64,000 nucleotides of DNA from a virus (lineage: Duplodnaviria; Heunggongvirae; Uroviricota; Caudoviricetes): IMG/VR virus record IMGVR_UViG_3300021310_000004; one strand, written 5' to 3'. Shown here in pieces: positions 738 through 59,820 of this stretch. Below the pieces are notes generated by a model that was given only the letters and a program-made list of their open reading frames with translations, did not search any database and had not been told where the DNA came from. Made by a program: the position numbers and the translations under genes. Every line of letters begins with the position of its first letter. Within the stretch, counting starts at the first letter, position 1.

Positions 738-805
738 ATACATTTCTCCTTTCATTTTTATTGATATATTCAGTTTAAATATGGGTAATTTTATTCATTC
801 GACAA

Positions 806-836
806 AAAAAAAGAGCCGAAAATCGACTCTTTTCTT
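806..836. terminator. bidirectional rho-independent terminator hairpin (AGAGCCGAaaatCGACTCT) flanked by A/T runs
   Basis: hairpin plus T-run read from minus strand after gene 848..1681. Confidence 0.5.
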
Positions 837-847
837 GTGGTTTTGTG

Positions 848-1681
848 TTATTCTGCAATTTCGTGTCTTGGAATCAGAATTACCTGGTTCATATTGATGA
901 TTGATTTTGGGTTTACGGCCTTTGTTTCTGCATGCATCTGCTCGTTCATTGCAATAGCATAGACTTCGAATAGTTTCATGCATAGACGCAAAGCATTTAG
1001 GAACAACGACTTTTCTTTCATATAGCCCGTCCAATCAAACTCACTTCCGGATAGTTTGGTTACAGCTTGGTAACTCTTCCAAATCTTATCAATGCTACAT
1101 TTTACCTTGCCGCCAAACATGGATTCGTATTTGTAATACTTTCCATTTTCGTACCAGACCAGGTGCCAATGTGGAACCCCGCGAAGAACCGGCACAATCA
1201 TTAAGTATGATTTATTAAGCCAACCTTTCAACTCTTCCTTGCTCTTTATCTTATTCAGTTCTATTCCGGCGTGCTCTGGCAAGAACTCATCGCATAGAAT
1301 CTGGTACAAGAGCGTCGAATCAAAGATTTCACCTACATAAGTCTTCCGGTCCACAGCATGAAGATGAGTGATATACGTCCATAACTTGGAGTGACTTCCA
1401 AACCGTGGCTTGCCAAGTAGCTTTGTTGCGCGTTCCATTGCATAGAATCCACAGGTTGACCCAATCTGAGCCATATTTTTGTGTTGAATGTAGGCTACAA
1501 TGAGGAATCCGGCAATAATTACTACGTGCCAGATCATAACAGGCTTAATCATTTCCCATGGAATCCGGTTTTCGTACCAAAGCGTGAGACCTATATAAAG
1601 TATTAATAGAACGTAAATCGTAATTAATACTGGTACAAGTGCAGCATTGAGTATTCTTGATATAGTTGATTTTTGCTTCAT
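848..1681 (-). CDS. membrane-anchored protein, possible C39-like cysteine peptidase domain (GSTCGFYAM)
   Basis: ORF; GAAAGGAG RBS before MKQKST; N-terminal TM helices; weak Cys-peptidase motif. Confidence 0.4.
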   Translation of the reverse strand: MKQKSTISRILNAALVPVLITIYVLLILYIGLTLWYENRIPWEMIKPVMIWHVVIIAGFLIVAYIQHKNMAQIGSTCGFYAMERATKLLGKPRFGSHSKLWTYITHLHAVDRKTYVGEIFDSTLLYQILCDEFLPEHAGIELNKIKSKEELKGWLNKSYLMIVPVLRGVPHWHLVWYENGKYYKYESMFGGKVKCSIDKIWKSYQAVTKLSGSEFDWTGYMKEKSLFLNALRLCMKLFEVYAIAMNEQMHAETKAVNPKSIINMNQVILIPRHEIAE

Positions 1682-1746
1682 ATCTATTCTCCTTTCGTGA
1701 TAAAGCAATTATTTTATGTACTTAAATATGGTCCAGACCAAAACGC

Positions 1747-1779
1747 ATAAAAAAAGAGCAGCCTCTTAGACTGCTCAAT
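1747..1779 (-). terminator. rho-independent terminator (GAGCAG..CTGCTC + T7)
   Basis: hairpin followed by T-run on minus strand after 1792..2313. Confidence 0.5.
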
Positions 1780-1791
1780 AGTAACATACGA

Positions 1792-2313
1792 TTATTCGAT
1801 TAATACCTTCGAATTTGAATCGATCAACACATTTTTTACACTAAGCGTTGGTTGCTGATACTTAAGTTGCTCATTAGCGCTCATTTTCCGGTACTTAGCC
1901 CCGTAGATAAAGTACTTCGGATAAACATACTGACCCATTTCATCTTTTTCATTTCCTGGGATATAGATTCTTGGGATACGATTCTGGATGCTAGGTTGAT
2001 CTGCAGGGACATATCCATGCTTCATCATCACGTGTCTGATCATCCATCCGACATTTCTTCTGTACTTCGCATTAGCTCCTTCCCCGTTTGTATTTAATGG
2101 GAACTTTGCGGTATCGTACTCATCTTCTAACACCTTAACAATTGGTGTCAGTACGGGAATTCCCATGTCTGCAGCTACGGTCATTTTCACGACAGTCTCC
2201 GGATCCATTAAGAACCGTAAGATCTTTTCTGCGGCATCGTATGATTCTGTCTCATCTTTGTCTCTAATTTTAGACTTCTCAAAGAACTCTCTTATCATTC
2301 CGTCCATATCCAT
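1792..2313 (-). CDS. hypothetical protein
   Basis: ORF with AGGAGGG RBS. Confidence 0.5.
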   Translation of the reverse strand: MDMDGMIREFFEKSKIRDKDETESYDAAEKILRFLMDPETVVKMTVAADMGIPVLTPIVKVLEDEYDTAKFPLNTNGEGANAKYRRNVGWMIRHVMMKHGYVPADQPSIQNRIPRIYIPGNEKDEMGQYVYPKYFIYGAKYRKMSANEQLKYQQPTLSVKNVLIDSNSKVLIE

Positions 2314-2825
2314 ATGACTTTCCCTCCTTTATTGAACCAGCGAATTAACTAGTTCTTTATTATGCCTATACTATAACACCAGCAAATTTACTTGTCAATA
2401 GCCACTAGCAAATTCACTGGTATTTTTTTTCACCACAGCATTACTAGTGTATAGTATTTATTTATTGAAGTATAAGACATCATAAACCATAACATTGCCC
2501 TTCCCGCCTTCTTCGCCTCAAGTCCTTCCATTTGCCAACCCGCTACACGCCCTATTGGCGCCGTAATAAGGCACAAATATATCCGCCCCTAATTAATACG
2601 CACATCAATTAGAGCCTTAAATACGAGCCAAATACGCGTCTTAATACAGGAATCGCAATATAGGTCCCAATAGCACCTGCTGCCATACCGGCACTAAAAT
2701 TGTTACCATACTCTCTCGTACGAGCTATGGAATCATAATATTGGTTCTTTCATCCGGTTCTACTCAACGTACGTAATTCGTTACGAAGGATCCGGACGTT
2801 TATCACGGTCGAACATATTCGGACC

Positions 2826-3190
2826 GATCTATTGGGACTTATATTGCGATCCAAATGTATTGGGACCAATATTGCGACCCGGCACCGGTTTCTTGTCGTC
2901 TGGATATCGGTTCGAATATATCCAGTCATATAATATGGTACGAATTTTTGGCGACTAATAGGTCGTGCCGGGATTAATGTGCCTTTATATTGGTACGAAC
3001 AAGATGCAACAGGTGTTTTGGAACGAATACATGGATCCACTATTGGGACTTATATTGCGATGCCGGCAGCAGGTTCGTTTATTTAGTTCTACAATACGGT
3101 TCCCTGTATCCCGATTCCGACATATTCGTGCCAATTATGGGCGCGTATTGCGGCTCCTATCCGTTTGGGGCCAATATTTTCGTGCCGATA
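2826..3190. repeat. iteron-like direct/inverted repeats (TATTGGGAC(TT/CA)ATATTGCGA x3 plus degenerate copies; CTGGATAT..ATATCCAG inverted repeat) in a GC-richer noncoding region
   Basis: repeats read directly at 2828, 2856, 3040, 3134, 3165; region 2440-3300 lacks credible ORFs and differs in composition. Confidence 0.55.
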
Positions 3191-5031: not shown

Positions 5032-6231
5032 CTATCGAACTTCGATCTCTACGCCGAGATAATCTCTGAGGTTCTCTACAAGTTCTGTTACTTCGTCCTT
5101 ATCATCCATGTCGACAATGGCGCTTGTTTCTCTGTACACCATTTCGTGACAATCACTTTCGCTTGGTTCACCCTTAAACTCTGTATAATCTACGTATCCA
5201 AGCTGTCTAAACACATGCACATATACGTAGTTCTTATCATACTCGTCTGTTGGGTTCGTGTATACGGTAACGAATGTGTTTCCATCTGCGCTCTCATATA
5301 CCTTATAGCTTCCATTCTTGCTACTATTTGCAGCGTGCTTATTTGCGCACTCTCTTAGCGTCTCATGATATGTAGTATTAAGATCGTCGTCATCAATCAC
5401 GCCAACGGATTTGCTGCTGCCATAATAAAGCGTATTATACGTACCACTCACACCGTCCAGCAATGTAAGCTTGTGCTCATCGGCATTTACGTAAACCTCT
5501 TCATCGATATTAACGGTGCCGAATCCAGGATCTTCATATTCTGGTGCAGTGTTTGCAACACTGGTAACAATGATTGGAAGTGCGTCTTCATTTTCTGTGG
5601 TAACCGCATCTTCGCCTGTAAACAAGAACTGGCCTACGTACTCAGCAACATCATCTGCGTTCCACTTCGATAATTCTTTCCATGTATGAGCGCCTTTTCC
5701 ATCTTCGCTTGGCCATTCGCACACGCTAATAGTCAGAACGCCCTTGTAGTTATCCGGTAACGGCTGAACAATATCGATAAAGGAATGCTCATCTCCGCCA
5801 TTGGAAGGATACACAATTACAGAAGCGTCTCCTGTTGGTGTTGATATGGTAAATAAATTATGTTCTGGGTTCTCCCAATCGCTGATTTCGTCTACGATTT
5901 CCGCAGCCTCTTCTGATACGTTATTGTATGGCGTATAACGATAGCCTACAGACACTTCTCCGCCGGAACTATCACGTTTTACGGCCGTTGTATCGTACTC
6001 AATTTCCCATTCATCCGAGAAGTGACAAATGGTTGTCTCAACTTCGTCCCCGTTTGTCAGCTTTAAAGCGGTAACGATAGCATTGCTCGTATCTACGCTC
6101 TCGGCGGATGTGGATGCTCCACTGGTCATATTGTCCTGTCCGTTGTTCGAATCAACTGTTGTCGCGGAAGAACATCCGCAAAGCATCGTACTAGCCATTA
6201 ATAAACCAATCATTATTCTTTTCTTATTCAC
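5032..6231 (-). CDS. lipoprotein (hypothetical), probable GTG start
   Basis: AGGAGGG RBS then GTG; signal peptide MNKKRIMIGLLMASTMLCGC with lipobox-like L-C-G-C. Confidence 0.5.
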   Translation of the reverse strand: MNKKRIMIGLLMASTMLCGCSSATTVDSNNGQDNMTSGASTSAESVDTSNAIVTALKLTNGDEVETTICHFSDEWEIEYDTTAVKRDSSGGEVSVGYRYTPYNNVSEEAAEIVDEISDWENPEHNLFTISTPTGDASVIVYPSNGGDEHSFIDIVQPLPDNYKGVLTISVCEWPSEDGKGAHTWKELSKWNADDVAEYVGQFLFTGEDAVTTENEDALPIIVTSVANTAPEYEDPGFGTVNIDEEVYVNADEHKLTLLDGVSGTYNTLYYGSSKSVGVIDDDDLNTTYHETLRECANKHAANSSKNGSYKVYESADGNTFVTVYTNPTDEYDKNYVYVHVFRQLGYVDYTEFKGEPSESDCHEMVYRETSAIVDMDDKDEVTELVENLRDYLGVEIEVR

Positions 6232-6396
6232 AATAAATACCCTCCTAAAAGTTTTTGTTACTTTAAATATGCACACAAAAAACGGGAACCAAACCTGGAA
6301 CCCGTTTTATCATTCGATTTTATACTCCTACCACTAAAGTAGTGGGATTCTTGTTCTAAATCGCTCGCACTTCTCTTATTACACTTCTACTTACGA

Positions 6397-7127: not shown

Positions 7128-7535
7128 TTACTCTCCAAAATCCGTTCCGGCGATTTCCTTCGCCCTGATTTTATACGCTTCAATTGCCTCGTAATCCGTG
7201 TATTCTTCGCCACAAAAACAATGTTCCAATGGGAACCTTATGAGGTCTTCTAATGTCTTGATCTCGTCGCAATATTTCTTCGTTTGAGCTTCGCACTCTA
7301 GCTCATATGTCTTAATTGCCTCGTCTTTTGTTCTAAAAATACAATCTTCCGTGACATAAGCTGTTCCATGATTATCAATTGAATGAACAACGTACACTGG
7401 CTCCTTGTTCTGAGGATCATCTGGTGGGACGTAGTAATCGACAATCTTTGCCTTTTCTACCGGAATCCAAGTCGTTCTAATATAAACAACGTCACCAATT
7501 TTGTACTTTCTATTCGTTACCGCTTTATCGCTCAT
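7128..7535 (-). CDS. hypothetical protein
   Basis: ORF, translationally coupled to downstream gene. Confidence 0.45.
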   Translation of the reverse strand: MSDKAVTNRKYKIGDVVYIRTTWIPVEKAKIVDYYVPPDDPQNKEPVYVVHSIDNHGTAYVTEDCIFRTKDEAIKTYELECEAQTKKYCDEIKTLEDLIRFPLEHCFCGEEYTDYEAIEAYKIRAKEIAGTDFGE

Positions 7536-8407
7536 TACTGTGCTCCGTATAGGATTCTTGCTAACTCGGAATTCTTATCCAGGATCAATGTCTTATTGTC
7601 GCCGGCCATAGCCTTCATAGCGTCCAAGCTTCTTTGATAATTGTAAAAGTCCGCTTTGGATTCATCGTTATAAGCATCAGACAAGATTCGCATATACTCT
7701 GCTTCACCCTCTGCAACTAACTTCGCCGCATCACTCTTTGCAGCTGCCTTTGTAATAGAAACCTGCTTATCCGTTTCGTTGCGGATCTTCTTTGCTTCTG
7801 CCTCACCCTTTGCGGCGTAGCTTGCGGCAATATTATTTCGTTCTGAAATCATACGCTCGTATACAGCAGCCTTATTATCGTCCGGCAGATCTAACGCCTT
7901 GATTTCAGCAGACTTAATCTCAATACCATACTGATCAATATCAGAATTTGCCTCGTCTGTGATCATCTTTGTAAGAGTATCGCCTCTTGCTGCAATGATT
8001 TCATCCTGTGTCATTGAAGAAATCGTATTTTTGGTTGCGTTATAGACGTTCGCCTCAATACGCTCTTCTGCTCTTGCTTTTACACCAACAAGTGTACGAT
8101 AATAAGCCACCGGATCCTTAACAGTCCAAATGACAACGTCATCCGCAATCATAGACTTCTTATCGGATGTGATTACGTCACTGGTCGGAATATCGTACAA
8201 ATTGTCACCGGTATAAATCTTAGCTACGCTCTCAATAAATGGCGTCTTAAAATGCATGCCGGTATCTTCTACCGTGTATTTTGCCTTTCCAAGATGAAGA
8301 ACAATAGCAGTTTCATTTGGCTTTACTGTGTAGGCGGATGCTGTAAACAAGATGAGTCCAGCAAAAAACGCTACACCAAAAAGAATCAAGGATAATACCT
8401 TTTTCAT
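7535..8407 (-). CDS. SPFH/band-7 domain membrane protein, HflC-like
   Basis: N-terminal TM helix; band-7 core (ETAIVLHLGKA... PVAYY); C-terminal coiled coil. Confidence 0.6.
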   Translation of the reverse strand: MKKVLSLILFGVAFFAGLILFTASAYTVKPNETAIVLHLGKAKYTVEDTGMHFKTPFIESVAKIYTGDNLYDIPTSDVITSDKKSMIADDVVIWTVKDPVAYYRTLVGVKARAEERIEANVYNATKNTISSMTQDEIIAARGDTLTKMITDEANSDIDQYGIEIKSAEIKALDLPDDNKAAVYERMISERNNIAASYAAKGEAEAKKIRNETDKQVSITKAAAKSDAAKLVAEGEAEYMRILSDAYNDESKADFYNYQRSLDAMKAMAGDNKTLILDKNSELARILYGAQ

Positions 8408-8419
8408 AACTTCCTCCTT

Positions 8420-9343
8420 TTACTGTGCAAATGTATCAAGTGGTAACATCGTCTGAGTTGACCCGTCAGTAACAATTACCTTTAGGCCTGGCAAAATGCT
8501 TTCCATTGTCTCGTAAAACATTCTCTTCTTCGTAATGGCCGGATACTTCTGGTACTCTTCATAGGTTTGATTAAAACGAGCAACCTGACCTTCGGCCTCA
8601 GCAATACGCGCCTGCTTCTTACCCTCTGCCTTCTGTCTAATTTCGTCAGCTTTTGCTTCAGCTGCAGGAATCTGTTCATTCTGGTACTGTAATGCATTGT
8701 TCTTTGCAGTATCGGCGCCCTGCTTTGCAGTTTCGACCGCTTTAAATGCAGCCTTGATTTCGTCTGTAGGTGGCTCAGAGTCCTGAATCGTAATATTCAC
8801 TACTGAAAGACCAATGTCTCGCTGCTTTAAGGACTTGTTAATTGCCTCCTTAATATCCGCCTGAATCTTGTTCTTACCGGTGGTCATCGCTTCATCCACA
8901 GTATAGTTGGATACAACCGTACGAATATCCGCCAACGCGGTGTTTACCATGATTTCTTCCGGTTCCTTCGAGTTATAAAGGTACGCAACTGGATCCGTAA
9001 TGCGATACTCCAGGTAAAAATCGATATTGAGCAAGTTAAAATCGCTCGTAATCATAATGCCGTTATCGGCATCTTCTACATTTTGGCCATCGTCAGATAT
9101 TTCGTATCCAAGTCCGGTACCATGTGTAGTAATATCAACCTTCTTCACCTTTTGCCATGGAGCTTTCACATGAAGACCGGCAGTATCTACTCGAAGGACT
9201 TCACCAAACTGCGATACGACAGCATTCTGTGTCTCTTTTACTCCATAAAAAGTGCGGAAAAGACAGATAATGGCGAATAACCCTAATAAGCCAAAGATAA
9301 TCATCTTTCCAATTGTGCTTGGTTCAATTTCATAATCATTCAT
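8420..9343 (-). CDS. SPFH/band-7 domain membrane protein, HflK-like
   Basis: TM helix then band-7 domain (VVSQFGEV..., LEYRITDPVAYLY), coiled-coil tail; paired with HflC-like gene. Confidence 0.6.
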   Translation of the reverse strand: MNDYEIEPSTIGKMIIFGLLGLFAIICLFRTFYGVKETQNAVVSQFGEVLRVDTAGLHVKAPWQKVKKVDITTHGTGLGYEISDDGQNVEDADNGIMITSDFNLLNIDFYLEYRITDPVAYLYNSKEPEEIMVNTALADIRTVVSNYTVDEAMTTGKNKIQADIKEAINKSLKQRDIGLSVVNITIQDSEPPTDEIKAAFKAVETAKQGADTAKNNALQYQNEQIPAAEAKADEIRQKAEGKKQARIAEAEGQVARFNQTYEEYQKYPAITKKRMFYETMESILPGLKVIVTDGSTQTMLPLDTFAQ

Positions 9344-9800: not shown

Positions 9801-10556
9801 TTATTCAACATCGGACATATAAATCACATTCTCTTCCATATCATCTAACCGTAAACAGATAGCTCCGTACGTATCCTTATCTCGATTCGGATTTACGCTA
9901 AACGCACAACCACCATCGATAAGCACGACGTTTGCTTCTTTATAGGCTTCGATTCCGTCATCCATCATTTCTACTACGCGCTGCACCGGTACGTGACCAA
10001 TGATAAACGTAGTATCCGGGATGTTATAATCCGATATTGGCTTGTAAGTATCGAAACGAAATGGAGAGCACCATACGACACTAAATGACTTAATCGGTGT
10101 ACGTTCCTCATATGGAACATCAATCATATCTTCCTTGTAATACGAATGACTGAGGCAATACTTTTTGTTATTTACGTTAACCAGCGTCAAAACTTTTCTT
10201 GTTCGCAGCCATTGAAGCAAATCAACTCGTTCCGCAATTGGTAACTTAGAATATGCTTCAAATGTAATGTCTCCGCCGTTCATATCGAACCACAAATCCG
10301 CATCCGGTCCTGGTAAATCGTCCACGGATCCATCTTTCGCAACAGAATTTAGCATCATGTGTTCATGGTTCCCAAGCAAAAGATCCATATTCGATGCTGA
10401 TTTAATCATTTGCAGTAGTTCGATCCCATGCGGACCACGATCAATAGCATCGCCTAAGACGTACATATAATCTTTTTCCGAAAAGTCGATTCTTTTTAGA
10501 AGTTCCTTAAATATGTCAATCTGTCCATGTAAATCAGAAACAACATATGTAGCCAT
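9801..10556 (-). CDS. calcineurin-like metallophosphoesterase (PP-lambda/PrpE-like Ser/Thr phosphatase)
   Basis: DLHG..., GDAIDRG, GNHE motifs. Confidence 0.7.
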   Translation of the reverse strand: MATYVVSDLHGQIDIFKELLKRIDFSEKDYMYVLGDAIDRGPHGIELLQMIKSASNMDLLLGNHEHMMLNSVAKDGSVDDLPGPDADLWFDMNGGDITFEAYSKLPIAERVDLLQWLRTRKVLTLVNVNNKKYCLSHSYYKEDMIDVPYEERTPIKSFSVVWCSPFRFDTYKPISDYNIPDTTFIIGHVPVQRVVEMMDDGIEAYKEANVVLIDGGCAFSVNPNRDKDTYGAICLRLDDMEENVIYMSDVE

Positions 10557-10576: not shown

Positions 10577-10610
10577 AATACGTATCATTGCACTACAATT
10601 TGTGACAAAA
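10577..10610 (-). promoter_or_regulatory. class A bipartite motif (TAATACGTATCATTG-N8-TTTGTGACAAAA) upstream of phosphoesterase gene
   Basis: 1 of 11 near-identical copies; functional sense is minus (TTTTGTCACAAA-N8-CAATGATACGTATTA). Confidence 0.5.
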
Positions 10611-10673
10611 TAAATATGATTTGTGTATTCGAAAACAAAAAAATAGCAACGTTTATTTACGCTGCTAAGTAAC

Positions 10674-10745
10674 AGAGGCAACAGGACTCGAACCTGTAAC
10701 GTTGAGGATCAAAGCCTCATGTTCTACCAATTGAACTATACCGCA
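10674..10745 (-). tRNA. tRNA-Gln(TTG)-like (two acceptor-stem mismatches)
   Basis: T-arm ACAGGTTCGAGTCCTGT; anticodon loop CTTTGAT. Confidence 0.45.
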
Positions 10746-10749
10746 TTAA

Positions 10750-10838
10750 CGCTCGCTACAGGACTCGAACCTGTGGACCAAATTTCTTTGATCAACTGAT
10801 TAGCAATCAGCCGCATTCACCAACTCTGCCAAACGAGC
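10750..10838 (-). tRNA. tRNA-Ser(GCT), type II
   Basis: cloverleaf hand-folded; loop TTGCTAA; long variable arm. Confidence 0.5.
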
Positions 10839-10842
10839 ATAG

Positions 10843-10916
10843 CAGGGGTAGAACGATTCGAACGCTCATAGAATCTTTCGATTCACGGTTTTGGAGACCG
10901 CTGTTTTACCATTAAA
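10843..10916 (-). tRNA. tRNA with CCA anticodon (Trp) and unusually extended variable region
   Basis: acceptor AGGGGTG/TACCCCT, loop CTCCAAA, 16-nt hairpin variable region. Confidence 0.4.
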
Positions 10917-10932
10917 CTACACCCCTATATAG

Positions 10933-11012
10933 AGATCCAGGTGGGATTTGAACCCACAACAATGTCATCCCAGATTTGCAGTCTGGAGCCTTACCAGTTT
11001 GGCTACTGGATC
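10933..11012 (-). tRNA. tRNA-Cys(GCA)
   Basis: perfect acceptor GATCCAG/CTGGATC; loop CTGCAAA. Confidence 0.5.
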
Positions 11013-11017
11013 ATAAA

Positions 11018-11099
11018 CGCCGTACACAGGATTCGAACCTGCAACCCATTACTGGGCCATGATTTTCAAGACCACTTCCTCACCACCCGGACATACGGC
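11018..11099 (-). tRNA. tRNA-Ser(TGA), type II
   Basis: loop CTTGAAA; variable hairpin CCCAGTAATGGG. Confidence 0.5.
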
Positions 11100-11103
11100 A
11101 TAT

Positions 11104-11250
11104 GAAATGAAACGCTGTGTCTGGGACTTGATTCTCAGCTACCGCTTCGGTCGGTGCTTCTACTTCGTAGAGGTGTCCACTGGACACCCGCACCCCAGAA
11201 GCCATCGCTGGCACCGGCTTTCGAGGTCGGTGTGTTTACCATATTCCACC
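11104..11250 (-). ncRNA. GC-rich structured spacer (stacked perfect hairpins GGTGTCCagtGGACACC, CTTCTACttcgTAGAAG) between tRNAs
   Basis: hairpins read directly; no ORF (11059..11397 ORF rejected). Confidence 0.3.
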
Positions 11251-11264
11251 AACACAGCTTATAG

Positions 11265-11346
11265 CGCCACCGATAGGATTCGAACCTATATACCCGTTAA
11301 GGCTACTGCGTTCCAAGCAGCTGCTCTACCATTGAGCGACGATGGC
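11265..11346 (-). tRNA. tRNA-Ser(GGA)-like, type II
   Basis: loop TTGGAAC, T-arm ATAGGTTCGAATCCTAT. Confidence 0.4.
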
Positions 11347-11577
11347 ATTAAAAAAGCACTCATTCAATTCATGGAGAAAAGAACAAGTGCCTTCTAGCTA
11401 AAATATATACTTAGTGCCGGAATACCGGTCATAATGTACCATTTTTGTTCCCATGAATCGTAACTATTGAATTTGCACCACAAATAGACCAACGACAAGA
11501 CTGTGATTGGCTACTAATGCTCTGTGAAATTCGTCTAATTACTAAGTTCTTCATGGTTTTTATTCCTTTCTACATTA

Positions 11578-11955
11578 TTATCTAAATTTGTAATATCGAT
11601 TTTCTTTCGTAAACATAGAAATATCTCCAGATGACATTCCGCTTTGTTCTTCTATTGATATCACAGGATGCCATACAGGGAATGGTTTTCCATGTATTAC
11701 ATGTGGCTGAAATCTGCAACGATATATTTTACCATCTACAATCCACTTCAATCCTCTAAATTCGAACAAAAGTCCATTAGCAGCGCTTCCAACGCAACAA
11801 AAATCTCCAGGACGAATAAAATCAGAAACTATAGACATGTTTATTCCATCTTTATTTTGCACTGCCTTTTCGATGATACTGTATAACAACTCTATTTCAG
11901 CGCTGCTATATTCAAATGGTTCAATCATATTTATGTTCCTTTTTACAAGAATCAT
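11578..11955 (-). CDS. hypothetical protein
   Basis: ORF between tRNA blocks. Confidence 0.35.
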   Translation of the reverse strand: MILVKRNINMIEPFEYSSAEIELLYSIIEKAVQNKDGINMSIVSDFIRPGDFCCVGSAANGLLFEFRGLKWIVDGKIYRCRFQPHVIHGKPFPVWHPVISIEEQSGMSSGDISMFTKENRYYKFR

Positions 11956-12060
11956 TCCTTTCTCATTCTCTCCGCAAAGAGCGAGCTTTCATCAAGCCGA
12001 TAATACGACGCATCGCTTACCGTGCCGCTATGGCTATCCGAAGATACCGACGGGATATAG

Positions 12061-12135
12061 TTGCGGATATGGGAGTCGAACCCACTATTTCAAGTTTATG
12101 AGGCTCGTGTGATAAATCCGTTTCACTCATCCGCA
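12061..12135 (-). tRNA. tRNA-Met(CAT) family (Met/fMet/Ile2 not distinguishable)
   Basis: perfect acceptor TGCGGAT/ATCCGCA; loop CTCATAA. Confidence 0.55.
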
Positions 12136-12136
12136 A

Positions 12137-12209
<73 letters not shown>

Positions 12210-12300
12210 ATATTGGGGCGGTTGGCGAGACCGTTTTCTGCTCTTGGCTTCCCAAAGCCTCAAAGTGTTTTCCCTGGGAACATACACATAACCCACGTAA

Positions 12301-12374
12301 TGATTCCAGGGAGACTCGAACTCCCATTTCCGACTTGAAAGGCCGGTGAACTAGACCAGTTATTCGATGGAACC
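12301..12374 (-). tRNA. tRNA-Glu(TTC)
   Basis: loop CTTTCAA. Confidence 0.6.
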
Positions 12375-12459
12375 ATATTAGCGGAATCCTGGGTTTCTAC
12401 CAGTGTTTACCTCGCTCCGAATATCGGGGCAAGGGCTTGCGTTAGGCAAATCCCGCCAG

Positions 12460-12532
12460 AACAGGTAACGGGGATCGAACCCGTGTATCCGACTTGGCAA
12501 GCCGGTGCTTTAACCAACTAAGCTACACCTGC
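12460..12532 (-). tRNA. tRNA-Gly(GCC)
   Basis: loop TTGCCAA. Confidence 0.6.
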
Positions 12533-12666
12533 ATATCCGGTGCAAATTGATATCATGGCCGGGATATCAATCCATAGGTACTTCTAACCGGACGTACCCA
12601 AACCCCTGTCTTGGCCTTCGACTTGACTCACAAGAGTCTGACATTGCCATAGGAATTGCAACGTTA

Positions 12667-12752
12667 GGGTGAAGGAGGAGACTTGAACTCCCACGGGATT
12701 TCTCCCGGCGGATCCACAATCCGCTGCGTCTACCAATTTCGCCACCGACACC
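12667..12752 (-). tRNA. type II tRNA-like with Leu-like body but GTG (His) anticodon reading; acceptor has 2 mismatches
   Basis: GTGGCGAAATTGGTAGACGC D-arm, loop TTGTGGA, long variable arm. Confidence 0.3.
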
Positions 12753-12892
12753 ATAGGTGCAGCAACGGTTCCCGCCGGGAAGCCTTTTGACTTCGGAGCC
12801 ACCGCTACACCATAAGCATAATGCCAACGTATTATATACATCCGCGTTGGTTCGGATTCAGCCCATAGCCACACAAAGGATAGCCGGGTAGT

Positions 12893-12964
12893 TGGAATGA
12901 CAGGGTTTGAACCTGCGACCTCTTGATCCCAAATCAAGCGTTCTCCCAAACTGAACTACATTCC
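12893..12964 (-). tRNA. tRNA-Pro(TGG)
   Basis: loop TTTGGGA; clean cloverleaf. Confidence 0.65.
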
Positions 12965-13137
12965 AATATGGTCTATAGGATAACTACTGGCGTCCTGCCC
13001 AGCATTTAACTCATTTCATATCCTGCGTTCTCTGTCAAAGACCCGTGACAGGCTTTCTTTAGCGGATTAGCTCGCTCCTACCACCTAGACATCGCCCTTT
13101 CAGACTTTGCCATTTCGCGAATGATGGATTCGGATCA

Positions 13138-13208
13138 TGCCCCGCGATGGAATCGAACCACCGACTTCTTCTTGTAAGGGAGACGTATTCCCATTATACT
13201 AGCGGGAC
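13138..13208 (-). tRNA. tRNA-Val(TAC)
   Basis: loop CTTACAA. Confidence 0.55.
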
Positions 13209-13242
13209 AAATAGTTATTTTGAATGGAATTTCTTTCCAGCG

Positions 13243-13315
13243 TGCCTGCACTGGGGCTTGAACCCAGGATCTTCGGATTAAGAGTCCGCTGCTCTCCCAT
13301 CTGAGCTACACAGGC
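13243..13315 (-). tRNA. tRNA-Lys(CTT)
   Basis: loop CTCTTAA. Confidence 0.6.
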
Positions 13316-13333
13316 GTATTTCATATTCACTTA

Positions 13334-13370
13334 TAATACGTATCATTGCGATGCGTTTTGTGACAAAATG
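13334..13370 (-). promoter_or_regulatory. class A bipartite motif upstream of tRNA block
   Basis: TAATACGTATCATTG-N8-TTTTGTGACAAAA. Confidence 0.5.
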
Positions 13371-13440
13371 CGCCTGACAGGATTCGAACCTGCGATATAC
13401 CGGTTAAAAGCCGGTTGCCATACCACTTGGCTACAGACGC
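13369..13440 (-). tRNA. tRNA-Lys(TTT)
   Basis: loop CTTTTAA. Confidence 0.6.
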
Positions 13441-13555
13441 CCATTTACTTTGGTTTTCGATACTTTCGTTTCTGTTTTCGCTTCATTGTTATACCTCTAT
13501 TCTTTTTAGTACATGTTCAACAATAGCTGAACGGCTTATAAGTTCCCAATATGTT

Positions 13556-13810
13556 CTATCCATTCGACTCGATTTCAAACTCAATCATTGATAATAGTTT
13601 TTTTAAAGCAGCCGATTCATCACTGGTAGACAACCGAATCCTTTGCCGGCCACGTTCATCATTGATATAAACATCATACATATTACTATCTGGATTCAAA
13701 CAGTATCCCATAACAAACCCGGCCTTACTATTTTCTTCCAGTATTACATCCCACATACCAATTTCGGCCTTCTTCTCGTTAATTATGTTCAAATATTCTT
13801 CCTTGTTCAT
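13556..13810 (-). CDS. hypothetical protein
   Basis: ORF inside tRNA region with plausible start context. Confidence 0.4.
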   Translation of the reverse strand: MNKEEYLNIINEKKAEIGMWDVILEENSKAGFVMGYCLNPDSNMYDVYINDERGRQRIRLSTSDESAALKKLLSMIEFEIESNG

Positions 13811-13863
13811 TTATAAATCCTCTATCCATATACAACCAGGATATATTTATACCTTTTGAGGAA

Positions 13864-13937
13864 TACCCCTTCCGAGATTCGAACTCGGAAAAACTTGATT
13901 TTGAATCAAGCGTGTATGCCAGTTCCACCAAAGGGGC
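13864..13937 (-). tRNA. tRNA with CAA (Leu) anticodon but short (type I) variable loop
   Basis: loop TTCAAAA; variable TTTTT; discriminator A. Confidence 0.4.
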
Positions 13938-13941
13938 CTAG

Positions 13942-14022
13942 TACAGGTGAAGGGATTCGAACCCTCAAGCTCTAGGCCACCTGATCCTAAGTCAGGCCTC
14001 TGTTCCATTCGAGTACACCTGC
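13942..14022 (-). tRNA. tRNA-Leu(TAG), type II
   Basis: loop CTTAGGA; long variable arm. Confidence 0.5.
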
Positions 14023-14027
14023 ATAAG

Positions 14028-46925: not shown

Positions 46926-46965
46926 TAATACGTATCATTGGACGTCATTTTGTGACAAAAAATCA
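46926..46965 (-). promoter_or_regulatory. class A bipartite motif
   Basis: TAATACGTATCATTGG-N7-TTTTGTGACAAAAAATC. Confidence 0.45.
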
Positions 46966-48246: not shown

Positions 48247-48365
48247 CCCCTCTCTTTCTTTTACAATCCTTTTAAATATGGGGATGCTAAATGGAAACAA
48301 AAAAAAAGAACCTATGCATAACGCACAAGTTCTGTTAATATCTTTATTTTCGAAATTGAAAATAT

Positions 48366-53948: not shown

Positions 53949-53989
53949 TAATACGTATCATTCGGCTCCATTTTGTGACAAAAAAAAAG
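53949..53989 (-). promoter_or_regulatory. class A bipartite motif
   Basis: TAATACGTATCATTCGG-N5-TTTTGTGACAAAAAAAAAG. Confidence 0.45.
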
Positions 53990-54026: not shown

Positions 54027-55355
54027 TTACTTTTCGAACGGGTAATCAGCATAGCAATGCGGGCAACGGACAGTATGTGGTCCATGTGACAAGAATGTAA
54101 TATCCTCATCCCAATTTTTTCCGCAATTGAAGCATCCAATATGCTTTACCTGGTGAACGACGTCCTTATGAAACTGCTGTGTTGCAATATCAACGTCATA
54201 CAATTTGCGGTACAGCTCAGTTCCGGTGTCATCGGAGACATTCAAGTACATCTTAGTATACTGCTGCTTATACACATCCTTATCTACCGCATCCTGCATG
54301 CTATTAACAATGATTCGATACTGAGCGTTGCAGGTCTCATTCATGTATCGAATTGCGTCCTTATACTTCGTGCGCAAACCTTCTAAGAGCTCTGCGTTTT
54401 TCGCCTCTTCCTCGGCTGTCAATTCGGCCTTCGCAACCAGGTTCGGCTTCGGCTTCGATTGTTCCTTTGGCTTTGGAATGATTGCATCAGAGTCTCCATC
54501 GTTAAGAGTCTCAACGGCAGCTTCGATCACCGGCTCGGCAGCAGGTTCGTTATGTGGTACGTCCTTTTCTTCGACAACCGGAACCTTATCTCCGGAGCCG
54601 ATTAATGCCTCGTTAGACATGTTTTCCTTGTCGTTAGTAACCTTACCGCGACTATCCTTAACAGAATCCTTGAGAGGGGCGATATCTCCCTTTAAGGTTC
54701 CCTGCAGAACCTCCTGGCGATTTCGTCTCATTTCCTTCTTAGCCTTATCTAACTCAGAGCTCTTAGCAACTCTTTCCTGGTTGTCCTGCGGCTTGAACTG
54801 CTTATTTGCTCTCATTTCGGACTTCAAATTCTGGCTAGAAGACAACTGCAATCTATCATGTACCATGCCGGTAATGATTCGAATGTCCTGGTCCGTAATA
54901 GTATTATCATCACAACGCTCGTAATGATCGTACAATACATCCATAACAACCTGGTCTTCGATTGAAGCTAACGCATCCTTCATATCCGGAGTGTAATCGC
55001 TGAACATATCTTCTGAAACACCGTCTAATCCAAGCTTCGCGAAGAACTCATTCCAGTCGAAGATACTTAACGCATCTACGTCAATCACTTCATGGTTGCA
55101 ATCTAACCAGTCAACATTACCACGCTCTATATCGCTTGGTACGAAGTTAACTACGCCGCTCTTAAAGTCAGCCATCTTCTTCATTACGTTAAAGTAAGAT
55201 CCCAGAATCTGGCTCTCCTTCTTTGCTACGAACTCTACGTTCGTCTTATGTCCCTTTAATACCACGACCGGTACAGGCACATTACCATTTCTAAGTAATG
55301 CCATCTTGTTAATCACGTCGAGTTTCTGGTTGTTCCATTTATAGATATTTTCCAT
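54027..55355 (-). CDS. large hypothetical protein with C-terminal zinc ribbon
   Basis: CFNCGKNWDED...CPHCYADY. Confidence 0.5.
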   Translation of the reverse strand: MENIYKWNNQKLDVINKMALLRNGNVPVPVVVLKGHKTNVEFVAKKESQILGSYFNVMKKMADFKSGVVNFVPSDIERGNVDWLDCNHEVIDVDALSIFDWNEFFAKLGLDGVSEDMFSDYTPDMKDALASIEDQVVMDVLYDHYERCDDNTITDQDIRIITGMVHDRLQLSSSQNLKSEMRANKQFKPQDNQERVAKSSELDKAKKEMRRNRQEVLQGTLKGDIAPLKDSVKDSRGKVTNDKENMSNEALIGSGDKVPVVEEKDVPHNEPAAEPVIEAAVETLNDGDSDAIIPKPKEQSKPKPNLVAKAELTAEEEAKNAELLEGLRTKYKDAIRYMNETCNAQYRIIVNSMQDAVDKDVYKQQYTKMYLNVSDDTGTELYRKLYDVDIATQQFHKDVVHQVKHIGCFNCGKNWDEDITFLSHGPHTVRCPHCYADYPFEK

Positions 55356-55399
55356 GTAAATTATCCTTTCGTTCTGTAACTTAAATTTTTTATGGTTAA

Positions 55400-55633
55400 T
55401 TATGCAACGGTATTTGATTGTACCGGTGTTTTTAACATTGCAGACAATCTCCGACCTTCCGATGAGGGAAATGCTGTAGTTATATTGGCCTTTAGCGGAA
55501 TCGCCTCCGTACCAATATGAATAGTTCCATCTCGTTCGGATTTAATGCGTAACGCATAATTGTCGCCGTCACTGGATTCGATTTCTGTGATTCGAAGCCC
55601 ATCCGTGTCCACTAATATGGTCTCTATAATCAT
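55400..55633 (-). CDS. small hypothetical protein
   Basis: ORF. Confidence 0.4.
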   Translation of the reverse strand: MIIETILVDTDGLRITEIESSDGDNYALRIKSERDGTIHIGTEAIPLKANITTAFPSSEGRRLSAMLKTPVQSNTVA

Positions 55634-57013: not shown

Positions 57014-57048
57014 TAATACGTATCATTAGGTTCTGTTTTGTGACAAAC
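57014..57048 (-). promoter_or_regulatory. class A bipartite motif
   Basis: TAATACGTATCATTAGG-N5-TTTTGTGACAAAC. Confidence 0.45.
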
Positions 57049-57117: not shown

Positions 57118-57447
57118 TTAAGCTTCAACAGAATTCTCTGCTGGTACATCAACGAAAAAGTGCTTATGGCAAATACCAATGTATGCCAATGTAAGGCCCA
57201 ATACGATCAGACCAGCAATAAGACTAACACTGACAGCCATCATCACCTCGTGCAACATATTGAAGTCACCAAGAACCGGAGTTCCAGCGTGCTGCTGAAC
57301 ATCCAAAAGGTGGCCTTTATACGCGCCTCGAAGAATAATTGTAAACACAAGTGCAAAAAAAGCTTCCGTTTTGGCGAAATTCTTTGCTAACAAATACTTT
57401 CCTTCTTTACGAAGTGTTCTGGTTGTGTTATTCTGTGTCTTGTTCAT
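57118..57447 (-). CDS. membrane protein (hypothetical), start refined to MNKTQ
   Basis: GGAGGAAAATATC-ATG; TM helices. Confidence 0.45.
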   Translation of the reverse strand: MNKTQNNTTRTLRKEGKYLLAKNFAKTEAFFALVFTIILRGAYKGHLLDVQQHAGTPVLGDFNMLHEVMMAVSVSLIAGLIVLGLTLAYIGICHKHFFVDVPAENSVEA

Positions 57448-57551
57448 GATATTTTCCTCCATTCATGAATTAAAATAGTTTTTACAATATTAAATATGGT
57501 AGGAAAATATTAGCGAAAAAAAGAGGCCCGTCATGGGTCTCTTTTTACTTA

Positions 57552-58295
57552 TTATTCGAACAATTTGCCACCGGCGCCGCGTTCCGCCTCACGCATCGCA
57601 TCCGCTGTGATCTCCGCCTTCGTCTCATCATCAATTTCCAATTTGGAGAACTGAATATTTCCAACATTGAACTGCATCAAAAACGAACAATTTTCTCCGT
57701 TGTCATCCAGAACACGGAAATAAGCAATCGGGAACGTCGCACTCATTACGCCCTGGCCGTTCATAATATTCGGCATCAGAGTTAATGAGAACATCGGGAC
57801 AACATTCGCCCCTGTAAGAGCAACCTGTTCCTGCATGACGCGATATCGGTTCATGAACTCATTGAGCTCCTTCATATACGCGTCCTTTGCACTGTCGAAT
57901 CGTAAAATCAAATTGAACAGATTTCCATCCAATGAATAGATGTCAAACGCTGCATTCTCTACTACGATCTGATCAACATACTCACGATTTTCTTCCGAGA
58001 TATCTTCAAGTGTCATGTTTTCGGTCACGTTATGAAGTCTTGAAATATCTGCCACAATCACACCAGGGCAGTGTCCGTTTTCATCTAACACCTGAAGCGC
58101 CGTGACGATATTGTCCGGTGTAATTTCCATCTTTGGTTCACCGAATACATTTTCCATTTCCGTGCCTCTAAATGGAACTACATTGTCCGGGCCTTCTACT
58201 TGTACAGCGGCCACATCTGGTTTAGAATCTGGTTCCGGAATTGGCTCTTCGAATAATGAATTCAACATTTCAGTACTAATCTTCTCTTCTGACAT
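57552..58295 (-). CDS. hypothetical protein (start refined to MSEEKIS)
   Basis: AAAGAAAGGAATGAAATC-ATG. Confidence 0.45.
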   Translation of the reverse strand: MSEEKISTEMLNSLFEEPIPEPDSKPDVAAVQVEGPDNVVPFRGTEMENVFGEPKMEITPDNIVTALQVLDENGHCPGVIVADISRLHNVTENMTLEDISEENREYVDQIVVENAAFDIYSLDGNLFNLILRFDSAKDAYMKELNEFMNRYRVMQEQVALTGANVVPMFSLTLMPNIMNGQGVMSATFPIAYFRVLDDNGENCSFLMQFNVGNIQFSKLEIDDETKAEITADAMREAERGAGGKLFE

Positions 58296-58345
58296 GATTT
58301 CATTCCTTTCTTTACTACATATAATCATTGACGTTATTTACGCCT

Positions 58346-58380
58346 TATATAAATATGTCTCGAATTTTTGGGAACAAAAA
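58346..58380 (-). promoter_or_regulatory. class B extended motif (GTTCCCAAAA-N9-CATATTTATATA minus-sense) preceded by terminator
   Basis: same architecture as 35585; followed by ACGTCAATGA...AAAGAAAGGAATG-ATG. Confidence 0.45.
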
Positions 58381-58402
58381 AGCTCGCATAATGCGAGCCT
58401 TT
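58378..58402 (-). terminator. rho-independent terminator (GGCTCGCATTATGCGAGC + T6)
   Basis: hairpin plus T-run after 58405..59193. Confidence 0.6.
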
Positions 58403-58404
58403 TC

Positions 58405-59193
58405 TTAGTTCATTTGTAGACTTGTTGCACCGGTGTTGTAATCAATATTGATGTACGGTTGAACATTGTGGCAGTACACACAGAAGCTTAATCCAGATCC
58501 GTTGTCATCCATGGAATACGCTTCCATTAATACGCCACGCGGGATTAATTCGTTACTTTCGTATACAGGCGTCACTCTGTACAAAACAGGGTTCCCTGTA
58601 TCTCGTACGTAATATAGTACCGTCTCTTCGAACTGCCACATACCTTCGATATTAAAATACCTGGTTCCTGTGATTAAATTCTCCGCGATATCTGGACCAC
58701 CAAGACTATGCGCGATTAAATGGCATCTATTATAAACGTATCCTCCATCGACAATTGATTCATCATACTTTTCTTGATCCCATCCTGGCGGATAAATGTT
58801 CGAAATGTCATCACGCTCGGTATCTGTTACCGTATCGCTTGATACAATTACTGTCGCCCCTATTGGACGGCCGTACTTATCAAACTGATATTTCGTATTT
58901 ACATTCGACGCGACTTCGGATGCTAAATATGGTACGTTGTCGTTTACGTACACAAATGCATCGCCGGAGTATTCGGGGCGAATAAAATCCGAACTTACTG
59001 TCGTAGTCTCTAACGCGTCTTGCTCCGTTTGATTTTCCACCGGTGTTTCATCATTTGACAATACGACCGGAAGAGGATTAGAGCTTAAACTGAACTCAGG
59101 GCCATGTTCCAACGCCAGATAACCCAATACCAGTGCCACAAACAATAAACTTCTTATAAAGCGTCTCGCTTTACGTTTTCTTTTAAATAACAT
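58405..59193 (-). CDS. secreted/membrane-anchored DNA/RNA non-specific endonuclease-like protein (EndA/NucA-like)
   Basis: N-terminal basic/TM anchor; NRCHLIAHSLGG resembles the (D/N)RGH nuclease motif; ATGAAAGGAG RBS. Confidence 0.35.
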   Translation of the reverse strand: MLFKRKRKARRFIRSLLFVALVLGYLALEHGPEFSLSSNPLPVVLSNDETPVENQTEQDALETTTVSSDFIRPEYSGDAFVYVNDNVPYLASEVASNVNTKYQFDKYGRPIGATVIVSSDTVTDTERDDISNIYPPGWDQEKYDESIVDGGYVYNRCHLIAHSLGGPDIAENLITGTRYFNIEGMWQFEETVLYYVRDTGNPVLYRVTPVYESNELIPRGVLMEAYSMDDNGSGLSFCVYCHNVQPYINIDYNTGATSLQMN

Positions 59194-59264
59194 AAAAACT
59201 CCTTTCATAGATATATTATCGTACTTAAATATGGTACGAATCTAACATATGAAAGGAGTATGTA

Positions 59265-59744
59265 TTAGCAGCTCTGAATAATTCTGTTGATCTCCTGCTC
59301 TAAAGCTGCAGTTGCATATTCAACACTTGCACACGGAATAGATGTTGTTACCAAATAAAAATTCATAACAGCATCGTGAATCTCCTGCTGCACCTTTGGA
59401 GTACGCTTCTTAAAATCCGGATCGATCATTGGAATCAACATAAGAGATACTACACGTTCCATCTCAGAATCATCTCGTGCTACTTGATTCTTTTCTTCCT
59501 CCTCTTTTCGAGCCATTGCGTCGGACGTCATTGTCTCCACCAGCTTACGTACGACGTCTGATGCAATCTTTGCGATTTCATTCATTCTAGCAGCTTTTGC
59601 GTGCGCAACAATAATCTGATTCAACTCATCCTCTGTAAAAATGGATGTATCTACTCCATAAGTTGCGGTAATGTCCGCCAGAATAGCTTTCATTGCCAAC
59701 TCTCTCTGTGTATTCTTTTCTTCATTTGCATTATAAACGATCAT
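59265..59744 (-). CDS. hypothetical protein
   Basis: AAGGAGAGACGAAT-ATG. Confidence 0.45.
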   Translation of the reverse strand: MIVYNANEEKNTQRELAMKAILADITATYGVDTSIFTEDELNQIIVAHAKAARMNEIAKIASDVVRKLVETMTSDAMARKEEEEKNQVARDDSEMERVVSLMLIPMIDPDFKKRTPKVQQEIHDAVMNFYLVTTSIPCASVEYATAALEQEINRIIQSC

Positions 59745-59775
59745 ATTCGTCTCTCCTTATTTCTGTTGATGTAAT

Positions 59776-59820
59776 AAATATGAAACCGTTTTTTGGAAAC
59801 TAAACATATTACATATTTAA
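59776..59820. promoter_or_regulatory. divergent class B promoter region
   Basis: TAAATATG-N7-TTTTGGAAACTAAA (minus-sense) and ACATATTTAAAAC (plus-sense). Confidence 0.45.

Follow-up and report, generated by a model that had tools for sequence, protein, structure and literature searches.

In a 64,000-nucleotide (nt) stretch of DNA from the IMG/VR virus record IMGVR_UViG_3300021310_000004 (Caudoviricetes), referred to throughout as the window, we found that a repeated sequence, the class B box, most probably serves as the promoter of roughly one in three genes in a large uncultivated phage-like element of rumen Lachnospiraceae. The core 8-mer of the box, CATATTTA, was present in 34 copies compared to 5.31 +/- 1.99 expected, and the extended form CATATTTAA in 19 copies compared to 1.66 expected, a number that 0 of 100 shuffles attained, confirming that the motif family proposed by a first-pass annotation of this DNA is real. 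Twenty-seven of the 34 core copies lie outside genes, and all 27 are sense-oriented with respect to the downstream gene, on both strands, as that annotation had stated; on the plus strand, the cores at 17216, 17521 and 59812 each stand before the sole plus-strand genes of their neighborhood. The other seven (94, 10508, 11926, 16855, 56347, 58924 and 62998) fall within coding sequence or the end of an insertion sequence (IS), and their number is roughly the chance number. The five examples that the annotation had singled out were correctly placed (25973-81, 32447-55, 33056-64, 34060-68 and 30741-49); its claim that the box precedes most protein-coding genes was overstated, as an exact core lies at most 160 nt upstream of 22 of the 73 confidently called genes (~30%).

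The copies were then scored by a mechanical promoter test, in which a Shine-Dalgarno (SD) sequence, a start codon and an open reading frame (ORF) of at least 40 codons had to lie on the same strand no more than 130 nt downstream. This test was passed by 23 of the 34 CATATTTA copies, compared to 3 of 34 copies of the reverse-complement core used as a control, and the window holds 3.6 such promoter-configured boxes per 10 kb. Start codons lie 28 to 66 nt past the core's end (median ~41 nt). The genes behind the boxes have mainly accessory or DNA-metabolism functions (NAD salvage, HNH, Bro-N, GNAT, nucleases and the 5'-3' exonuclease), and the box-flanked accessory genes at 17-34 kb and 57-60 kb are monocistronic. 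One box also precedes a very large gene (1662 aa, NlpC/P60 domain) on the adjoining locus L002.

Relatives of the element were found through homologues of its 5'-3' exonuclease. Locus L009 (exonuclease identity 72%, GC content 36%) contains 16 copies of CATATTTA, ~11 of them before genes; L015 (44%, GC 31%) contains 15, ~7 before genes; and L011 (42%, GC 32%) contains 18, ~11 before genes. At all three loci the boxes have the same terminator and SD context as in the window, and strictly promoter-configured boxes occur at 4.2-4.3 per 10 kb. Upstream of the orthologous exonuclease gene itself, a T-run, ~18 nt and CATATTTA(A/T) have been kept in four lineages while the flanks are unalignable, and the sequence TTTG(C/T)AAA occurs in L011 and L015 at the position of the window's TTTCCAAAA. 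The pattern was absent from loci L010 (exonuclease identity 50%) and L014 (36%). In 417 kb of Lachnospiraceae chromosome, only 1 of the 36 core copies present was promoter-configured (0.02 per 10 kb); no box was found in the bacterial DNA flanking L021 and L023 beyond the element's own end, and the Butyrivibrio plasmid pNP144 had no promoter-configured box. A promoter is the simplest reading of the box because it is strand-specific, is held at a fixed short distance from an SD sequence, follows terminators, is conserved amid drifting flanks and is essentially absent from host DNA.

A pooled profile was built from 51 promoter-configured sites of the window and its relatives, numbered with the C of the core as -12; since sites were picked by exact match, the eight core positions are invariant by selection. 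Beyond the core, position -4 was A or T in 50 of the 51 sites (the remaining one being G), C occupied -13 in 31, and a purine stood at the predicted +1 in 35. Further upstream, a T-tract spans -36 to -31 (T at -33 in 46 of 51 and at -32 in 45 of 51), G is the commonest base at -30, and positions -24 to -20 are A-rich. A T-run followed by G was considered as a precisely positioned -35 element in the window and dropped, since this G stands anywhere between 11 and 19 nt from the box. A hairpin of dG <= -7 kcal/mol with a T-run ending 7-34 nt upstream of the box, our criterion for a terminator, was found at 17 of the 27 window boxes compared to 3.9% of random positions, with a gap of mostly 16-20 nt, and at these 17 sites the T-tract is the U-tract of the intrinsic terminator. 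An independent consensus scan placed terminators at 26862, 30794, 32499, 33115 and 34110 just before boxes, and terminator-like sites as a whole were enriched between 20 and 40 kb (26 compared to 12.5 expected).

Downstream, the box is usually followed by an unstructured A-rich leader and then by GAAAGGAG, the strongest SD sequence in the window. The first-pass annotation had described the downstream block as (A/G)CGTCAATGAAAGGAGA; this exact form was found only at 25941 and 32415, and the block that holds generally is the SD GAAAGGAG, present behind 15 of the 27 boxes. Conversely, of the 16 GAAAGGAG copies acting as an SD, 15 have a box no more than 70 nt upstream. These associations, together with the 17 of 27 terminators, indicate that terminator, box and strong SD travel together. 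The conserved leader was also considered as a structured RNA, a candidate that was dropped as the alignment fold reached only -0.5 kcal/mol and showed no covariation.

Class B comes in two architectures, with and without the upstream element GTTTCCAAAA. At nine sites (10611, 17179, 29644, 35587, 36746, 38157, 48273, 58350 and 59775) this element is present with at most 3 mismatches, its G standing exactly 18 nt upstream of the box's C; the annotation had named six of them, all of which have the element at a spacing of exactly 8 nt, and those at 38157, 10611 and 48273 are further sites. The composite GTTTCCAAAA-N8-CATATTTA occurred 10 times compared to 0.2 expected. At the other 18 of the 27 sites the upstream-element score was no better than background, and the notion that GTTTCCAAAA is the strong end of a gradient present everywhere was abandoned, since most sites score at background level. 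The two groups also differ in the box itself, sites with the upstream element having mostly CATATTTAT and the remainder CATATTTAA (Fisher p = 0.0012). Both of the divergent regions that had been annotated were borne out: modules 1 and 2 align gap-free as TAAATATG, 29 nt, CATATTTAA, with a single shared upstream element between the boxes. In module 1, the minus arm is ATTAGTTTCCGAAA, 8 nt, CATATTTA(A) at 17179-17208, serving the HNH ORF 16581-17174 (minus strand), and the plus arm is the CATATTTA(A) core at 17216-17223, serving 17257-17472. In module 2, the minus arm is TTTAGTTTCCAAAA, 8 nt, CATATTTA(T) at 59775-59804, serving 59265-59744, and the plus arm is the CATATTTA(A) core at 59812-59819, serving 59859-60260. 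In the HNH ORF, no SD precedes the ATG, whose A is found exactly 7 nt past the CATATT of box 17179; because this A falls at the predicted +1, a leaderless HNH mRNA is predicted if CATATT is the -10 hexamer.

The near-identity noted earlier between the blocks at 25.97 kb and 32.45 kb extends from box to SD, where 45 of 47 nt are identical. The first of these full cassettes, CATATTTAATTCGTAACTTAATATGCGTCAATGAAAGGAGA (25936-25981, minus strand, behind a terminator), serves 25567-25935, and the second (32409-32455, minus strand, behind terminator 32499-32477) serves the unrelated gene 31452-32408; a third copy, ~80% identical, lies at L009:2773. The three cassettes precede three proteins with no detectable similarity (E = 2.1, 0.32 and 0.13), and gene duplication as the source of the two near-identical cassettes was rejected because the downstream proteins are unrelated. 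The proposal of modular cassettes of promoter and ribosome-binding site therefore fits the evidence, namely the orientation, the distance of 28-66 nt, the terminators, the strongest SD and the reuse of a cassette before three genes. Each accessory gene would then be an insulated terminator-promoter-ribosome-binding-site unit, and because the units are near-identical they could also serve as sites of homologous exchange, as do the promoter-early stem-loop (PeSL) cassettes of T4-type phages. Among the strain variants available, which were ~100% identical, no indel with cassettes at its ends was seen.

The other boxes on the minus strand with an upstream element are TTTAGTTTCCAAAA, 8 nt, CATATTTA(G) at 29644-29673 (behind a terminator, serving the HNH_3 gene 29082-29615); TTTAGTTTCCGAAA, 8 nt, CATATTTA(T) at 36746-36775 (just downstream of tRNA-Gln, serving the DUF4317 gene 35619-36698); GTTTCCATTT, 8 nt, CATATTTA(A) at 48273-48298 (behind a terminator, serving an MYG1-family gene with its start at ~48240 and its end at 46963); and TTTTGTTCCCAAAA, 8 nt, CATATTTA(T) at 58350-58379 (behind a terminator, serving 57552-58328). 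Two more abut a site of a second promoter-like motif, class A, in a tandem arrangement of B then A: a degenerate upstream element GTTTTCGAAT, 8 nt, CATATTTA(T) at 10611-10636, next to class A 10578-10608, serves the metallophosphatase gene 9801-10556, and TTTGGTTTTCAAAA, 8 nt, CATATTTA(T) at 38157-38186, next to class A 38124-38154, serves 37932-38090 and 37393-37908. Upstream of an RNA of the ROOL family lies TTTAGTTTCCAAAA, 8 nt, CATATTTA(T) at 35587-35616 on the minus strand, followed at once by a hairpin and T-run (35585-35562) and then by a one-mismatch box, CATAATTA, at 35545-35552. The same variant, CATAATTA, occurs as a candidate box outside the 27 at 55397-55404 (minus strand), 41 nt before the start of gene 54027-55355.

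Plain CATATTTA(A) cores on the minus strand that follow a terminator lie at 1723-1730 (serving 848-1681), 26806-26813 (terminator 26862-26836; serving 26045-26764), 28521-28528 (serving the Bro-N gene 27910-28476) and 57491-57498 (serving 57118-57447); a Bro-N gene truncated by the end of locus L009 likewise has a box ~45 nt upstream. Also on the minus strand, the CATATTTA(A) core at 776-783 has no upstream element, and its terminator T-run ends 18 nt upstream (serving 144-743), while that at 6264-6271 follows a hairpin and T-run (serving 5032-6231). Behind terminator 30794-30767 on this strand stands the CATATTTA(A) core at 30742-30749; the sequences it serves are a mini-ORF of 13 codons, a structured leader that is conserved (30478-30672) and the gene 29715-30476 of the PAPS-reductase family. 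Extended cores, again on the minus strand, were CATATTTA(A)TTTGTAAC at 33057-33064 (terminator 33115-33087; serving the GNAT gene 32507-33013) and CATATTTA(A)TCCGTAAC at 34061-34068 (terminator 34110-34095; serving 33158-34012). Two minus-strand CATATTTA(A) cores stand without a terminator, at 21571-21578 inside the NAD-salvage cluster (serving the NAPRTase gene 20317-21525) and at 38789-38796 (serving 38546-38746), and another of that strand, at 59226-59233, serves the Endonuclease_NS_2 gene 58405-59193. The form CATATTTA(T) occurs at 27853-27860 (minus strand, behind a T-run, serving 27272-27811) and at 17521-17528 on the plus strand, behind a terminator, where it serves a 47-aa ORF and the 5'-3' exonuclease gene 17724-18773; this is the box with orthologues in L009, L011 and L015.

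We consider it probable that class B is a promoter confined to this mobile element and those related to it, and that it is read by the host core RNA polymerase with an alternative sigma factor. Under this proposal, CATATT would be the -10 hexamer (-12 to -7), TA(A/T) a conserved discriminator, and transcription would start ~7 nt after CATATT, at the G or A of a frequent GTAAC, with the place of the -35 region taken by the T-tract of the terminator or by the GTTTCC element. The sigma factor would have a -10 specificity like that of sigmaE or sigmaK and would most likely be encoded by the element. Phages of Bacillota carry sporulation-type sigma genes, and the sigmaE/sigmaK-type -10 element of Bacillus subtilis reads CATA---TA. 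In Clostridioides difficile, the -10 boxes of the mother-cell sigma factors are CATATTAT and CATATAAT (PMC3789822), and phage SPO1 has been reported to have sigK-like promoters, hypothesized to be read by its sporulation-like sigma factor gp2.21 (PMC9429907). The host core enzyme with an alternative sigma is favored because CATATT is the start of the clostridial mother-cell box and because of the SPO1 precedent: the six first bases of CATATTTA are identical to those of CATATTAT, and class B shares with sigmaE/sigmaK promoters a T-rich or minimal -35 region.

Several observations weigh against this proposal. The last two bases of the class B core are TA compared to AT in the clostridial consensus, and both -35 marks of sigmaE/sigmaK-type promoters, ATA for sigmaE and AC for sigmaK at 16-18 bp upstream, are missing from the pooled profile, which instead has a T-tract followed by G at -36 to -30; nor does GTTTCCAAAA have a counterpart in sigmaE/sigmaK promoters. 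Searches with Pfam and PHROG among ~50 of the larger window ORFs and ten ORFs of adjoining and related loci revealed no sigma factor or RNA polymerase, and the recorded Pfam hits of genes on the fetched loci included neither; no gene for either function was found in the ~80 kb of the element examined, which is part of its genome. The hairpin and T-run directly trailing box 35587 would be odd for a productive promoter, and both promoter activity and the start site are deduced from sequence.

The main rival, which we regard as unlikely, is that the box is the early promoter of an RNA polymerase encoded by the element itself, either a virion-packaged multisubunit enzyme as in phiKZ and AR9 or a single-subunit enzyme, and is not sigma-dependent. 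According to a review on the polymerases of jumbo phages, every jumbo phage encoding an RNA polymerase has a phage-specific, AT-rich and highly conserved motif of ~10 nt near -10 before its early operons, and some genes of such phages have an early as well as a late promoter (PMC7598289). The shape of class B before many short operons fits this motif and the tandem B-then-A sites fit dual promoters; the element is tRNA-rich and probably very large, and sites of the sigma70 consensus are depleted between 20000 and 39999 (34 compared to 57.7 +/- 7.3 in shuffles). Set against this, no beta/beta'-like or other polymerase gene was found in the window, L002 and L022 or in 50 kb of relatives, CATATT is common to the box and to a known sigma-family -10 element, and class A has the classical sigma70-family geometry, which implies use of the host enzyme.

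The suggestion of the first-pass annotation that class B may be a late class analogous to the TATAAATA promoters of T4, that is, -10-only sites read by a gp55-like minimal sigma factor and coupled to replication, fared less well, and we consider it improbable. The 18 sites that have no recognizable positioned upstream element, the invariant AT-rich octamer with 5 of 8 positions in common with TATAAATA, and the box before the 1662-aa NlpC/P60 protein gene of L002 are consistent with it. The genes served are mostly accessory or nucleotide-metabolism genes and not structural ones, the box does not look strictly -10-only, with a T-tract at -36 to -31 and the upstream element fixed at nine sites, the sequence is closer to the clostridial sigmaE/sigmaK -10 element, and no homologues of gp55, gp33 or the clamp were seen in the window with Pfam and PHROGs; the late-class claim thus went unsupported.

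A still more doubtful alternative is that the box is an ordinary host sigmaA promoter with an unusual -10 hexamer and with the TTTTTG of the terminator as a weak -35 hexamer. Many sites do have a T-tract and G 16-18 nt upstream, taking TATTTA as the hexamer gives a sigma70-like spacing, and CATATT retains A-11 and T-7. Yet sigmaA prefers T at the first position, where all 51 of the pooled sites, picked by exact match from four lineages, have C; the TG extension is missing, and no site listed in the sigma70 consensus scan (20-40 kb) coincides with a box. The arrangement expected of a host sigmaA promoter (TTGACA, 16-18 nt, TATAAT with or without TG, also present in host DNA) was not found for class B, and the promoter-configured box is ~170 times rarer in 417 kb of host-family DNA and absent from the Lachnospiraceae plasmid. 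Least probable of all is that the box is not primarily a promoter and instead marks a cassette boundary (a recombination or homing site), a DNA-binding-protein site or an RNA-processing signal: a single 47-nt cassette occurs in front of three unrelated genes from two phages, several genes for HNH endonucleases are close by and the upstream element is symmetric between the boxes of the divergent modules, like an operator, but a recombination site would need neither strict sense orientation nor a narrow SD distance, the leader has no conserved RNA structure, and a role in recombination is compatible with promoter function, as in PeSLs (PMC2839356, PMC4122927).

The second, longer promoter-like motif mentioned above, class A, is probably the 'class A' of the first-pass annotation and consists of TTGTCACAAA, 11 nt and TGATACGTAT(TAT). 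The motif has sigma70-family geometry (TTGTCA, 14 nt, TG, 1 nt, TACGTA). In addition to the two tandem sites, class A was found at 13336-13366, 16002-16032, 24187-24217, 37352-37382, 40658-40688, 45255-45285, 46928-46958, 53951-53981 and 57016-57046, all sites being on the minus strand, and it stands in front of tRNA clusters, of the tmRNA, of regions that appear to be non-coding and of some protein genes. The motif was absent from L009, L011 and L015, and a search of metagenomes of the Joint Genome Institute (JGI) returned only four contigs of 1-2 kb with the pattern. The leaders after class A 37352 and 46928, before a tRNA-like sequence and the tmRNA, respectively, share TCAACCTAAG ... CTTACCCGT.A.AGGCGG, while the sites at 45255 and 57016 are both followed by TATTATATTTGAAC..G.AATTG. 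A textbook promoter (TTGACA, 17 nt, TATAGT) lies before gene 1792-2313, near the recombinase gene.

The window has 35 tRNA genes called by ARAGORN, in minus-strand arrays at 10673-15675, 34156-34622, 36788-36996 and 41335-44738, and two more found only by the Rfam tRNA model (41335-41408 and 42304-42427). Several tRNAs are unusually long (81-124 nt), and a 4-base anticodon was called at 42837-42929. A tRNA-like sequence at 37095-37215 (minus strand), with a GGTTCGATTCC T-arm and a long extra arm, was not called by ARAGORN. The tmRNA lies at 46404-46754 (minus strand; tag ARSNVRPMAVAA), and the ROOL RNA is full-length (34861-35444, minus strand; Rfam RF03087, 251 bits compared to a gathering score of 99) and adjoins tRNA genes. 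The transcript of the class A-driven tRNA operon (minus strand) contains three copies of CTCCTTTCAT (36910-36919, 37049-37058 and 37222-37231), three copies in 330 nt compared to ~0.1 expected per 64 kb, and sites of this type also occur at 46345-46352 and 59251-59258. CTCCTTTCAT is the perfect complement of the ATGAAAGGAG block common to class B leaders, resembles the 3' end of 16S rRNA, and is kept in L017, a 93% identical relative, save for one base change; the repeats could be a trans-acting anti-SD RNA. Between box 30742 and the PAPS-reductase-family gene, the ~200-nt leader at 30478-30672 (minus strand) is 94% identical to the intergenic region before the PAPS reductase gene of the Butyrivibrio hungatei plasmid pNP144, with no conservation of the flanking coding DNA. 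It has two hairpins with compensatory changes, a fold z-score of -2.8 and no Rfam match, and is a candidate for a new cis-regulatory RNA.

As to the element itself, the window contains an NAD-salvage cluster and genes for HNH, Bro-N, a RuvC-like resolvase, the 5'-3' exonuclease, a ParM-like protein and a tyrosine recombinase, and just past its right end lie the 1662-aa NlpC/P60 protein, an HU protein and a RecD2-like helicase. Genes for a capsid, a terminase, a sigma factor or a polymerase were not seen in the DNA examined, and we therefore describe the element, which is tRNA-rich and probably very large, as a large mobile element of phage-like character, which would be a huge phage or else a phage-plasmid. 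The NAD-salvage set (19536-23456, minus strand) looks complete, with NAD synthase, NAPRTase, a NadD-like nucleotidyltransferase, an isochorismatase/nicotinamidase and a NUDIX/NrtR-like protein, and may be a counter-measure to NAD-depleting host defense. Paired SPFH/Band_7 genes stand beside a metallophosphatase gene in the window (7535-9343, minus strand) and in the distant relative L011 (11592-14600). Comparison with GenBank phages gave no megablast match for 8 kb and no tblastn match for two proteins, and scans of IMG/VR with a 22-base composite motif and with a 442-aa protein found nothing. The best relative of the proteins and DNA stretches tested was that of the exonuclease, with at most 31% identity to GenBank phages. 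A sequence search of solved structures with the 442-aa and 491-aa proteins gave no informative match, and a literature search for the string CATATTTA returned only primers and unrelated matches.

Positions 1 to ~126 of the window lie inside an IS3-family insertion sequence, the same as that at 11556-13025 of L021, which joins the left end to two different stretches of bacterial DNA (GC 45%) in different metagenome contigs. One of these stretches has 98% nucleotide identity, and 100% PtsI protein identity, to the rumen isolate Lachnospiraceae bacterium XBD2001, and a Lachnospiraceae host is likely because of this match. The junctions suggest either an IS shared with a Lachnospiraceae host or assembly chimeras formed via the IS. 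An IS-free contig, L022, continues the element and carries four more boxes.

These results provide a sequence handle on the transcription program of abundant, uncultivated large mobile elements of the rumen. Taken with its terminator and SD context, the 8-mer allows transcription units to be predicted and related contigs to be recognized, and the cassette, as a compact insulated expression module, may be of use for engineering in poorly tractable anaerobic Lachnospiraceae. If the reader is indeed a sporulation-type sigma factor, phage gene expression would be tied to the sporulation machinery of the host. A broader picture, speculative and in our estimate rather unlikely to hold as a whole, is that very large phage-like elements or phage-plasmids found in Lachnospiraceae of the rumen and gut, with tRNA arrays, tmRNA and ROOL RNA, form a lineage not described before, which may run most accessory genes from a promoter of its own, read by a sporulation-type (sigmaE/sigmaK-like) sigma factor or a polymerase that it encodes itself; that the terminator-promoter-SD units would double as clade-wide shuffling cassettes; and that the AUGAAAGGAGA block of the mRNAs would be targeted in trans by the three perfectly complementary CUCCUUUCAU repeats of the class A-driven tRNA operon, forming a translational switch between the promoter classes.

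Among known systems, the early promoters of jumbo-phage virion RNA polymerases resemble class B in having a conserved AT-rich motif of ~10 nt near -10; unlike in those phages, phage RNA polymerase genes were not found in the part of the genome examined, and the element also has a promoter class of sigma70 geometry. The late promoters of T4 (TATAAATA, served by gp55, gp33 and gp45) share with class B a phage-specific AT-rich octamer near -10, often with no recognizable -35 hexamer. The class B core differs from that octamer at 3 of 8 positions in all 51 sites (chosen by exact match), the upstream element is fixed in one third of class B sites, and a T-tract occupies -36 to -31. The late promoters of SPO1, given as CGTTAGA(N17-19)GATATT and read by gp34 (as quoted in PMC3601020), agree in this quoted form with class B at 5 of 6 positions of the -10 element, (G/C)ATATT, and TTAG occurs at about -33 in upstream-element (UP+) sites. 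Measured against the same quoted form, the spacing in class B is 16 nt compared to 17-19 nt, most class B sites have no TTAG, and the conserved part of GTTTCCAAAA falls in the would-be spacer. The organization of the unit is most reminiscent of the PeSL cassettes, through which genes are shuffled as modules in phages of the T4 type (Arbiol et al. 2010, PMC2839356; Comeau et al. 2014, PMC4122927). As in PeSLs, an intrinsic terminator stem-loop lies immediately before the promoter within ~60 bp (17 of 27 class B boxes), the unit recurs among small, variable accessory genes of mostly unknown function, and near-identical copies precede unrelated genes, which suggests exchange by homologous recombination. 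The class B cassette differs in having a Gram-positive host and in belonging to an element with no relationship to T4, in that the box is not of the sigma70 type whereas PeSLs carry a host sigma70-type early promoter, and in that it includes a fixed strong SD. Class B is thus a known kind of signal, a phage-private promoter consensus in a PeSL-like cassette, and its consensus, its lineage and the possible link to a sporulation sigma factor are new.

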